From contig JBGPIA010000003.1 in assembly GCA_041484665.1 (NCBI GenBank), positions 10,229 through 74,228 of the forward strand: a stretch of 64,000 nt of DNA. Direction: 5' to 3'. Made by a program: the position numbers and the translations under genes. Every line of letters starts with the position of its first letter. The stretch's first letter is position 1. This document shows positions 2,563 through 5,886 of this stretch, one piece after another. Below the pieces are notes generated by a model. The model made no database searches and was not told where the DNA came from. It saw only the letters and a list, made by a program, of their open reading frames with translations. This stretch comes from Candidatus Krumholzibacteriia bacterium (lineage in GTDB: Bacteria; Krumholzibacteriota; Krumholzibacteriia; JAJRXK01).

Positions 2563-3056
2563 CTCCCACCGGGCGCGCCCGGTGGCAGAGCCGCGGCCGT
2601 CCGGCCGACCATCCGGCGGGCCACCAACGGATCTGCCTGGACCCACTGACCCGGGGGCCAGGCCGCCGTGCGCCCGGACTCCTCGCAACGCAACGATGGC
2701 ACCAGCCACGCCGGGGAGATCTCCAGGCCCGAGACGATCAGCGTGAAGCGCGCCGGCCCTGGGTGATCGGCGGGCAGCAGCGCCTCCAGCGGCAGCTCGA
2801 GGATCGAGGCAGGCTGCACTACGCACTCCTGCTGCCCCAGGCGGCTGCCCTTGGCATCCAGCGCGGTGAGCAGAACGCGGCGTGGCAGCATGTCGCTGGA
2901 CAAGAGAGATAGGATCAGTTCCTGGGCGTCGGGGCCGGGCGCCACGACCTCGGCGAGGCCCGGGGACGCCCAGATCCATACCGACCCGGCCGGGCCCGGG
3001 GCGGGCCGCCCTGCCTGCAACAATCCGGCCATCAGCAGGATCACGCCATGCGTCAT
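2559..3056 (-). CDS. Hypothetical protein, possible signal peptide
   Basis: ATGA overlap with the upstream gene's stop; starts MTHGVILLMAGLLQA; no family recognised. Confidence 0.55.
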   Translation of the reverse strand: MTHGVILLMAGLLQAGRPAPGPAGSVWIWASPGLAEVVAPGPDAQELILSLLSSDMLPRRVLLTALDAKGSRLGQQECVVQPASILELPLEALLPADHPGPARFTLIVSGLEISPAWLVPSLRCEESGRTAAWPPGQWVQADPLVARRMVGRTAAALPPGAPGGS

Positions 3057-3970
3057 CGCCGCTCCCCTTCTGCGCGCGGCGCCCAGGTCGCGACGCCCAG
3101 GCTCCATTGCACGCCGCGCAGCGTGTTCTCCCCACCCAACGGCAGCGACGCGCCGCCCACGAGCCACAGCGTGCCGCACACGCGCAGCGCGGCCTCCGGC
3201 GCCAGGCGCCAGCTACGCTCCGACGCGGACACGGCTCCGGCCGCCGCACCGGAGCAGCCGCCCCCGGCGGGAAGCACGGCGCGCAGCTCGACCTTCCAAA
3301 ACGCAGCGCCGCCGCTCGCGCCCGCCTCCAGCGCCCCCAGCCAGCTGTCGGCGAAGCCCGCGCCGCGCCCACGATACCCGAGCGTGGCGTTGGCATACAG
3401 TGGAAGCGGCCACAGCGACCGCCCCGCCAGGAGGAGCAGCTCCCCCTCGACGTGCCCGCTTCCCGCGGGCAGGTACTGCGTGCGCTGCGCCGGCGGTTTG
3501 CCGAGGTCGGACGCTGGGTAGGTGGGAACCCACAGGCTCGCCTGGGCTGCCCAGGGGCTGCGCCCCTCGTGGAGCGCCAGCCGCGCGCCGAGCTGCAAGT
3601 CCGCGGTCGAGCGCGTGCCGAAGCCCGGCGCGCCGTCGATCCGTTGGTCCTTGAACGCCCACGAGCCGACCAGCGCGAGGCGCGAGCGCACTCCGTACTC
3701 GCCGTACAGGAAGAGCTCCCGGTCCACGTAGTCGCCGCCGGAGGGATCGGCCGGAACGCGCCGACCGTCGCAGTCCACGCGCTCGCTCGCGCGCTGGGTC
3801 AGCAAGCTCAGCTTGAGGATGCCCCCGCCGGGCGGAGGCACCCAAGCGCCCGCCCGGGCGTCGCGGTCGTGCGGTGCCGCGCTCAGCGCCAGCAGCGAGG
3901 CTGCCGCCGCGATCCGCGGCGCACGCAACAGCCGCGCGATGCGCGGCGCGCGGAAGGAAAGCGATCGCAT
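3053..3970 (-). CDS. Putative outer-membrane beta-barrel / transporter-like protein
   Basis: Signal peptide ending ARA-GAW; alternating beta-strand pattern (LFLYGEYG, YANATLGYR, LVGGASLPL, WSLGVATW). Confidence 0.6.
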   Translation of the reverse strand: MRSLSFRAPRIARLLRAPRIAAAASLLALSAAPHDRDARAGAWVPPPGGGILKLSLLTQRASERVDCDGRRVPADPSGGDYVDRELFLYGEYGVRSRLALVGSWAFKDQRIDGAPGFGTRSTADLQLGARLALHEGRSPWAAQASLWVPTYPASDLGKPPAQRTQYLPAGSGHVEGELLLLAGRSLWPLPLYANATLGYRGRGAGFADSWLGALEAGASGGAAFWKVELRAVLPAGGGCSGAAAGAVSASERSWRLAPEAALRVCGTLWLVGGASLPLGGENTLRGVQWSLGVATWAPRAEGERR

Positions 3971-5074: not shown

Positions 5075-5638
5075 CTACTCGCGGTAGAGCGCCTTGACCG
5101 CGCCGAAGCTAGCGGACTCCACCGGCACCGCGGTGGTCAGTGTCGCCGTCTGCGGAGTGAGGTCGACCAGCTGCGGATCGGGGGTTGGACAGGTGGAGAA
5201 ACGCGGAAGGGTCACGCCGGGCTGCGGCACCGGCCACTTGGACACGGTGATCGCGGCGTTGTTGACCGCCGAGAAGGCGAGCACCTGGAGCGTGGACACG
5301 ACCATCACGTCGGTGGAGTTCCACAGCAGCATGCAGTCGGCGAAGCCCATCTGCACGCCGCTCGCGCTGCCCTGCCCGTTCACGAAATTGCCGGCGAACG
5401 TCTCGCCGATCACGATCAGCTCGCTGGGCAGATTGACCTTGTACTCGACGGCCGTCATCTGGTTCTGCACGTCCGTCATGCAGACGTAGAGGTTGAACGG
5501 CGTCGAGGTTCCCTTGGTGGCCGTACTGGTCGTTGCCGCGCTGTCGAAGTAGACGCCGATGTTTCCGGCCTGGGCAGCCGGGGCGCCCAGCAACAGGGCG
5601 AGCGCAGCCAGGGCCGCGATCGTTCTCAAGGACTTCAT
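5075..5638 (-). CDS. Secreted beta-sandwich (cohesin-like?) protein with a C-terminal 'VESASFGAVKALYRE' tail
   Basis: AAGGAG SD; Sec signal MKSLRTIAALAALALLLGAPAAQA; beta-rich mature region with cysteines. Confidence 0.85.
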   Translation of the reverse strand: MKSLRTIAALAALALLLGAPAAQAGNIGVYFDSAATTSTATKGTSTPFNLYVCMTDVQNQMTAVEYKVNLPSELIVIGETFAGNFVNGQGSASGVQMGFADCMLLWNSTDVMVVSTLQVLAFSAVNNAAITVSKWPVPQPGVTLPRFSTCPTPDPQLVDLTPQTATLTTAVPVESASFGAVKALYRE

Positions 5639-5886
5639 GGCTGGATCCGCTCCTTGCGCTTCCGCTTGGGTCCGCGTCACGGGTGGTGCGGGGAGAAGGC
5701 GCCCGGCGTTTGCAAACTGCACGCGCGCGGAGCCGCCTCCCTTGGGTTCTGCGTCGCCACGACGGGGACCCGCGCCCCAGCCGTGACCAGCGTGGGCCGA
5801 GCGCATAACACATGCCGGGCGCGCTGCGGGCGGAAAGGCGGCAATTCCTTCCGGGTCGGTCCGCGCGCAGCTGCGCGGCGAAGCAG

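Follow-up and report, generated by a model that had tools for sequence, protein, structure and literature searches.

A short, undescribed C-terminal tag on exported proteins of a Krumholzibacteriia bacterium and its candidate PorU-like partner enzyme

C-terminal sorting signals, each with a dedicated enzyme, are a means by which bacteria decorate their surfaces, and every new pair of signal and enzyme (sortase, exosortase, T9SS) has opened a field. The type A C-terminal domain (CTD) of T9SS cargo is a C-terminal Ig-like β-sandwich of 70-100 residues. Gram-positive pilins are joined by sortase C through a lysine, and type V pilins of Bacteroidota are matured by Arg-gingipain, a C25 peptidase, so that the C-terminal segment of one subunit fills the groove of the next. 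The C25 enzymes also include a Lys-specific member. The window analysed here, a stretch of 64,000 nucleotides from a Candidatus Krumholzibacteriia genome, contains a gene for a small exported protein with a short amphipathic tail that the initial annotation singled out as a candidate sorting signal. Below, the tail and its genes are compared with these described systems.

The focal gene and its parts are listed in Table 1. Window positions 5075-5140 of the minus strand translate to LTTAVPVESASFGAVKALYRE, followed by the stop codon. The hairpin beyond this codon is likely a terminator, and the focal gene would therefore be monocistronic here; a consensus terminator scan returned nothing at the hairpin because it lacks a T-run. 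About 1.1 kb downstream, positions 3053-3940 (minus strand) form the inner part of a 624-aa ORF. This segment starts with a sequence resembling a signal peptide, MRSLSFRAPRIARLLRAPRIAAAASLLALSAAP, continues for about 290 aa after the start with an outer-membrane β-barrel-like sequence, and ends in VQWSLGVATW.

Table 1. Features of the focal gene and its surroundings in the window.
Feature	Window positions	Strand	Basis
Focal gene, 187-aa exported cohesin-like protein with C-terminal tail	5075..5638	-	ORF list and start mapping
Stop codon of the focal gene	5075-5077	-	
Sec (SPase I type) signal peptide MKSLRTIAALAALALLLGAPAAQA, predicted cleavage before GN	5567..5638	-	heuristic scan: n-region, h-region, AxA site
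Cohesin-like β-sandwich core, residues 25-169	5132..5566	-	AF2 model and Foldseek
Tag P172-V-E-S-A-S-F178-G179-A-V-K182-A-L-Y185-R-E187	5078..5125	-	strictly C-terminal motif
Ribosome-binding site AAGGAG, 11-16 nt 5' of the ATG	5650..5655	-	read from sequence
13-bp perfect GC-rich hairpin, 3' of the focal stop codon	4982..5012	no strand	sequence

The structure of the focal protein was modeled with AlphaFold2 from a 9-sequence family alignment. The core was predicted as a β-sandwich with strands across residues 26-169 (pLDDT ca. 72-94 per 10-residue block, pTM 0.71), while pLDDT was below 50 over most of residues 1-22 of the signal peptide. Tail residues 174-185 were placed as a detached helix with low confidence (pLDDT 51-56). 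A Foldseek search of the PDB assigned to the core the nine-stranded jelly-roll β-sandwich fold of cohesins: the top 18 matches were all cohesins, with a probability of 1.0 and target-normalised TM scores of 0.47-0.70, and cohesins made up most of the top 27. The cohesin fold of the focal family recalls the dockerin-cohesin pairs of cellulosomes, and the tail could be a small docking peptide. Unlike cohesins, the focal core gave no sequence-level match to the Pfam Cohesin model (PF00963), which was matched by another tail protein, o33107, at 3.6e-4. Dockerins, moreover, are duplicated Ca-binding helices of about 70 residues, whereas the tail, about 12 residues long, lacks a Ca-binding loop. No other Pfam model matched the focal protein, and NCBIfam gave one spurious weak match only.

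By exhaustive search the focal family comprises 1565 cluster representatives at E ≤ 1e-3; such a search was needed to establish the family size, since a word-indexed homologue search gave only three relatives. The tail is kept in homologues that are 60% and 34% identical to the focal protein. Among the best 150 of the 1565 representatives, 110 carry the strict tail and 5 a CTD instead.

The initial annotation had proposed that such tails recur on many unrelated secreted proteins, and would have abandoned the idea had the motif been confined to the focal family. All six-frame ORFs of the 5.45 Mb genome (69.5% GC) were searched. The core motif [WFY]G.[IVLM]K.[LMIV][YFW] occurred 29 times, in 28 cases within 5 residues of a stop codon. 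In residue-shuffled ORFs the same motif was found 0-2 times in total and about 0.05 times at the C-terminus. The relaxed motif P.{5}[WF]G.[VILMT]K..[YF] gave 49 occurrences, all within 10 residues of the stop, with no internal occurrence among the ORFs of this genome. An HMM widened the set to about 55 ORFs, beyond which there are weaker variants that have I, L or C instead of W. The roughly 55 ORFs fall into 37 core families that are unrelated by BLAST, the largest paralogue groups having 7, 4, 4 and 3 members. The recurrence claimed at the outset thus holds within this genome, where the tail is a real, undescribed C-terminal tag on about 55 exported proteins.

The tag follows the pattern [VA]-P-x5-[WF]-G-x-[VIL]-K-x-x-[YF], with 0-10 further residues before the stop; AVPVESASFGAVKALYRE is an example of a tail peptide. 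Among 39 unrelated tail proteins the positions of G179 and K182 are invariant, and that of P172, six residues before the W/F, nearly so. The codons for the glycine (GGC, GGG, GGT, GGA) and for the lysine (AAG, AAA) differ between copies, and the tail is therefore conserved as a protein and not as a DNA repeat, pointing to selection on the peptide. It is predicted to form an amphipathic helix (μH 0.42 for the focal tail, range 0.42-0.50) in which W1, V4 and Y8 share one face. The stretch before the tag has a composition of its own: among tail ORFs of loci L025-L144 and this genome, a cysteine lies 3-6 residues before the tag proline in 56%, compared with 23% expected, which suggests a disulfide closing the passenger domain just before the tail. 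By a crude heuristic of our own, as are the gene calls, signal peptides were found in 34/49 tail ORFs and in 31% of background ORFs (Fisher p = 6e-8), in line with the expected enrichment on exported proteins. The domains of the carriers (LTD, Laminin_G_3, phosphoesterase, CHRD, β-helix, CBM20, Calx-beta, DUF4114, alginate lyase, PPC and cohesin) are a typical repertoire of surface or extracellular cargo, and most of the 37 families are enzymes or binding domains scattered over the genome. No Pfam or NCBIfam model covers the tail in the focal protein or the 39 carriers, and a literature search with the motif strings returned no mention of it.

The tag is also widespread beyond this genome. Searching 101 genomes of its phylum with a tail-encoding DNA pattern gave 0-46 matches in each, against 0-1 for the reversed pattern that served as control. 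At least 120 stretches in GTDB species genomes matched. Among the matches listed, those with a label belonged mostly to 'Candidatus Eisenbacteria' and further to Latescibacterota and Krumholzibacteriia, many records having no phylum label; this agrees with the lineages named in the initial annotation as far as these three are concerned. Of the 135 listed matches, 127 end 0-6 residues before the stop; in 101, LY is followed by a single residue, in most cases R. Selected genomes of Eisenbacteria-, Latescibacterota- and Krumholzibacteriia-labelled lineages contain up to 60 tail matches each.

Other genomes carry the tail sparingly or in another position. In three family-f2 genomes with 1-2 tail matches each, one match lies in a conserved neighbourhood (L005:9779-9946, plus strand; L006; L009). 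There the tail gene adjoins a gene for a CTD protein of 306-311 aa and converges on another that encodes a repeat protein of about 800-1060 aa with a CTD; the tail ORF of L005 looks split from an upstream frame. Two CPR-labelled genomes of about 1 Mb, L031 (labelled Candidatus Kerfeldbacteria) and L120, lack SprA yet carry the tail peptide. There, L031:1247-1999 (minus strand) and two L120 genes (minus strand) encode P-x-x-R-S-[ST]-WGAIKALYR directly after the signal peptide, at the mature N-terminus. This peptide is exactly of the Eisenbacteria type, and 2 of the 3 exported carriers match Peptidase_M23. It may reflect mimicry by an episymbiont of a surface-docking tag of the host. An N-terminal peptide on M23 peptidases speaks more for a position-independent binding peptide than for a C-terminal signal that is cleaved off.

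Among described signals the T9SS type A CTD and its sortase PorU come closest. The tail, too, is found at the very end of surface or extracellular proteins that are exported by Sec, in FCB-group bacteria with a T9SS. The genome encodes T9SS machinery, with SprA recognized at 484 bits on a 2506-aa ORF and a canonical PorU at E = 2e-136. About 216 ORFs carry a FlgD_ig/T9SS-like CTD of some 80 aa, terminal in 203 of them; this corresponds to 4-5% of the genes and to an unusually large predicted T9SS secretome. Unlike a CTD, the tail has about 16 residues, no Ig-like fold and no HMM match, confirming that it is much shorter, as first noted. Neither the focal protein nor the 39 tail proteins matched the type A models TIGR04183 and PF18962, while the true CTDs of this genome match TIGR04183 and FlgD models weakly. 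The carriers are smaller as well, with a median of 232 aa against 774 aa for the 203 CTD proteins (p = 6e-21).

The two kinds of C-terminus are interchangeable on similar cores: cores of tail proteins are 57-82% identical to those of paralogues ending in a CTD. Such pairs in this genome are o1605/o45541 (74% identity), o21789/o31649 (63%) and o52079/o52060 (65%). In the first two the alignment extends through a common '..VP' and then diverges, one partner continuing with x4-[ST][WF]GxVKxLY and the stop, the other with a linker and NxPNPFNP...CTD, so that in those pairs the tail replaces the CTD. SprA was found in 14/14 tail-bearing genomes of other labels, and SprA with a canonical PorU in every tested genome with several C-terminal tails. 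SprA is, however, present in 101/101 genomes of the phylum sample, including those almost without tails, and its presence therefore does not discriminate tail-rich from tail-poor genomes. The tag is not independent of known machinery but sits within a T9SS setting. Tail proteins may be exported by the T9SS, a possibility on which this co-occurrence and the tail-CTD swap bear. To our knowledge there is no precedent for SprA export of so short a tail. PMC11285876 reports that the Ig-like CTD fold is essential for T9SS export, and this requirement counts against such export of a 16-residue tail. Two large CTD proteins, o55010 (C44:4995-6563, minus strand) and o48842 (C22:60154-64056, minus strand), include the cohesin-like domain of the focal protein as an internal segment, and o55010 also has a dockerin-like repeat, DMNGDGIVNSGDAVLILRR. 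This architecture hints at a surface assembly of the cohesin-dockerin type.

The initial annotation had suggested searching for a co-occurring processing enzyme or translocon. In neighbourhood screens of this genome and of 20 loci from low-count genomes, 'CTD proteins' were the only recurrent neighbours of tail genes, which are 2-3 times enriched near CTD genes. Hidden within this cluster because of its own CTD was a PorU-like enzyme, which surfaced when the neighbours were inspected one by one. In this genome four tandem focal-family tail genes (C5:2-3248) lie directly upstream of, and on the same strand as, a gene for a 1484-aa C25 peptidase with a CTD (C5:3591-8042, plus strand; locus L145) that matches the PorU model NF033707 at E = 1e-51. 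In another genome (G043), three such tail genes precede an enzyme 24% identical to this one; the genes downstream of the PorU-like gene are not conserved between the two genomes. The two NF033707 scores obtained for the operon partner, 175.8 and 171.2 bits, stay below the curated cut-off of 420 bits, although the matches span positions 7-760 and 5-737 of the 1095-position model, about 70% of it. Three PorU-type genes are present in this genome, a canonical one (C2:448329-452619) and two recent non-canonical duplicates (C5:3591-8042 and C2:743891-748532, minus strand). The tail-gene array is found upstream of the C5 copy only and is absent at the other non-canonical paralogue.

To examine the synteny, the 7.5 kb preceding the second PorU-like gene were taken from another 20 genomes. 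Nineteen of them have 1-5 tandem tail genes directly in front of this gene and in the same orientation, the exception being one genome of the phylum without an array (G078). At the canonical PorU the same test found tail genes in 0/20 (Fisher p = 3e-10). The array genes encode proteins of 185-275 aa that end in the tail or a near variant, and many are detectably of the focal family. Arrays also occur in genomes with genome-wide tail counts of 0-2, including some in which they are the only tail genes detected. The same adjacency was seen in G107, G112, G114, G116, G117 and G076, in the Eisenbacteria contig L100 and in L133. Three of these, the related and tail-rich genomes G114, G116 and G117 (loci L191, L192 and L190), have a conserved gene for a CxxCH (haem c) protein of about 405 aa between the array and the PorU-like gene. 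No tail gene was found in the 7 kb preceding any of 7 PorU-like loci from four Eisenbacteria genomes, each of which has 32-59 tail matches.

In a maximum-likelihood tree, read without five mis-picked longest-ORF rows on long branches, the canonical PorU sequences group together with 100/100 support, to the exclusion of the tail-linked enzymes, which thus differ from canonical PorU as a separate clade. The enzyme of this genome (G000_A) and the G043 paralogue contain QGH[AG] and GMGCH motifs 33 residues apart, a spacing that we take to be that of the gingipain His211-Cys244 dyad. These are putative catalytic residues, and on the motifs the operon partner is predicted to possess the His-Cys dyad of C25 enzymes. 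It also keeps a T9SS CTD, as recognized by an HMM built from the genome's own CTDs. The tail is genetically linked, like the CTD, to a PorU homologue with putative His and Cys motifs and a CTD of its own. Re-testing with a protein query detected the second PorU-like gene in 11/11 genomes, although a single PorU match had been seen before in ten of them; paralogue counts rest on this query, the family search with 6 scored candidates per genome being unreliable. Among the genomes examined none had tails but lacked the enzyme. Every sampled genome of the phylum has the gene, including those with almost no tails, and its presence alone therefore does not discriminate. A literature search on a second PorU gave nothing relevant. 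The link could also concern the cohesin-like domain of the array proteins and not the tail.

The tail resembles LPXTG/sortase, PEP-CTERM/exosortase, GlyGly-CTERM/rhombosortase and MYXO-CTERM signals in being a short conserved motif on many unrelated exported proteins. Its copy number varies similarly, from 0 to about 60 per genome, and genomes with few carriers have them beside the candidate enzyme. With PEP-CTERM it also shares cargo (DUF4114, CHRD, LTD, Calx-beta). Unlike these tripartite signals it lacks a TM helix and needs no basic cluster: the motif is followed by just 0-10 residues, most of them polar. Its candidate enzyme is a C25 peptidase predicted at the cell surface, not a membrane-embedded sortase. 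None of the NCBIfam sorting-signal models matched, apart from one weak match of a single member to a PEP-CTERM protein family (PepA). The distinction from LPXTG, PEP-CTERM and GlyGly-CTERM that was drawn from the focal sequence is thus borne out by the carriers.

The many unrelated carriers, the strict terminal position, the interchange with the CTD and the adjacency to an enzyme in genomes with few carriers lead us to propose that the tail is a new, short and modular tag for sorting or processing in a pathway associated with the T9SS, with the second PorU-like sortase as its reader. We give this proposal about an even chance of being correct. The tag would mark mostly small Sec-exported proteins of extracellular type in T9SS-bearing Krumholzibacteriota-, Latescibacterota- and Eisenbacteria-type bacteria. 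After Sec export and folding in the periplasm, carriers would cross the outer membrane in a T9SS-dependent manner, either by direct recognition of the tail or by hitch-hiking on a CTD-bearing partner. The PorU-like enzyme, which should sit on the cell surface since it carries its own CTD, would bind the short amphipathic peptide with its W/V/Y face, cleave it, possibly after the invariant lysine as in Lys-gingipain, and transfer the protein to a surface acceptor. A cut after this lysine, which is speculative, would release a peptide of only 3-6 residues. The focal protein would belong to the founding family of cohesin-like substrates that forms the operon arrays, as a member dispersed from them and standing alone. 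The distance of 0-10 residues between motif and terminus counts against a sorting tag. The suggestion of the initial annotation that the tail is a secretion or surface-anchoring signal came through each computational test, and a candidate enzyme of the kind it asked for adjoins the arrays; the export route, the cleavage, the anchoring, the recognition by the enzyme and the acceptor are what we infer.

The likeliest alternative is that the tail is a non-covalent docking peptide, a 'mini-dockerin' whose uncleaved helical motif binds a surface receptor, possibly cohesin-like modules of T9SS-anchored scaffolds or another conserved envelope protein; the PorU-like gene would then be linked to the cohesin-like family on other grounds. 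The cohesin fold of the largest tail-bearing family, the cohesin-like segments within the giant CTD proteins o48842 and o55010, the latter with its dockerin-like repeat, and the enrichment of tail genes near CTD genes, their sole recurrent neighbours, all suit docking. So do the predicted free helix with W1, V4 and Y8 on one face and the N-terminal position in the CPR M23 peptidases, and, because the motif is followed by a differing number of residues, a reading through the free carboxylate is less likely. We nevertheless consider docking unlikely. An HMM of the cohesin-like core had no members among 141 tail ORFs, a sample mostly from Eisenbacteria, and that domain is therefore unlikely to be a universal receptor. 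Strict C-terminal placement in hundreds of proteins is needless for a simple docking motif, and what the tail replaces is a secretion and sorting domain, not a binding domain. An in-plane amphipathic anchor that tethers exported proteins to a membrane leaflet or LPS, with no protein reader, would resemble the anchors of PBP5/6 and the MinD membrane-targeting sequence in length, amphipathicity and terminal position. The tail helix is rich in interfacial W, Y, K and R with μH of 0.42-0.50, variants such as WGRVKTLFGGGQ resemble what we take to be the MinD-type sequence KGFLKRLFGG, and the first neighbourhood screens gave no dedicated partner. PBP5/6 and MinD anchors, however, share no conserved sequence between unrelated proteins, nor is an enzyme linked to them. 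An invariant G and K, a P-x5-W spacing that does not vary and conservation across phyla, as seen in the tail, are atypical for lipid-binding helices. With a helix of only 10-12 residues and an operon link to a sortase-like enzyme that it does not account for, such an anchor seems improbable.

The operons also invite a reading as fibres or pili, in which the tandem cohesin-like tail proteins are subunits polymerised by the PorU-like enzyme, either by sortase C-like joining through the lysine or by maturation in the manner of type V pilins, with the C-terminal segment filling the groove of the next subunit; other tail proteins would be tip or decorating subunits. Gram-positive sortase pili and Bacteroidota type V pili are precedents for tandem genes of small β-sandwich proteins in an operon with a cysteine transpeptidase or peptidase, here 1-5 paralogues with a C25 peptidase/transpeptidase homologue, and for a conserved C-terminal element; the tail has an invariant Gly along with the invariant Lys. 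No pilin motif, lipobox or prodomain was recognized in the tail proteins, which sets them apart from both kinds of pili, and no pilin-like N-terminal prodomain was identified. The carriers have SPase I signals and not the lipoprotein signals of type V pilins: compared with FimA/Mfa1, they show AxA-type sites, with a lipobox-like Cys in 1 of about 55. The AF2 model has no docked tail, and the majority of the 37 carrier families, being enzymes or binding modules, are encoded outside the operon. Fibre assembly is thus improbable. That the tail is an artefact, by chance similarity or paralogy within a single family, deserves practically no credence. Some carriers are indeed paralogues, in groups of at most 7, 4, 4 and 3. 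We reject single-family paralogy on the 37 unrelated families, and chance similarity on the about 0.05 C-terminal occurrences in shuffled ORFs against 28 observed and on the 0-1 reversed-pattern matches per genome against up to 60 for the true pattern.

Returning to the tag read by a PorU-like sortase, a wider form of this proposal can be put forward as possible, if tentative. In Krumholzibacteriota-, Latescibacterota- and Eisenbacteria-type bacteria a second T9SS branch, reserved for the tail, would use an unfolded 16-residue tag in place of the folded 80-residue CTD, and the PorU-like sortase would cleave it, perhaps after the lysine, so that passengers become covalently attached or polymerised at the cell surface. 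Together with the cohesin-like arrays this would yield a T9SS-coupled, cellulosome- or pilus-like surface assembly, and CPR bacteria resembling episymbionts may mimic the tag, aiming M23 hydrolases at their hosts.

The tag is present on dozens of proteins per genome in several large, uncultured and environmentally abundant phyla, and it has no annotation in the databases. The finding supplies a concrete and testable candidate pair of enzyme and substrate. If the second PorU-like enzyme reads the tag, sorting by the T9SS would not depend strictly on a folded CTD, a very short tag would become available for surface display, and the surface proteomes of these phyla would become predictable from sequence.
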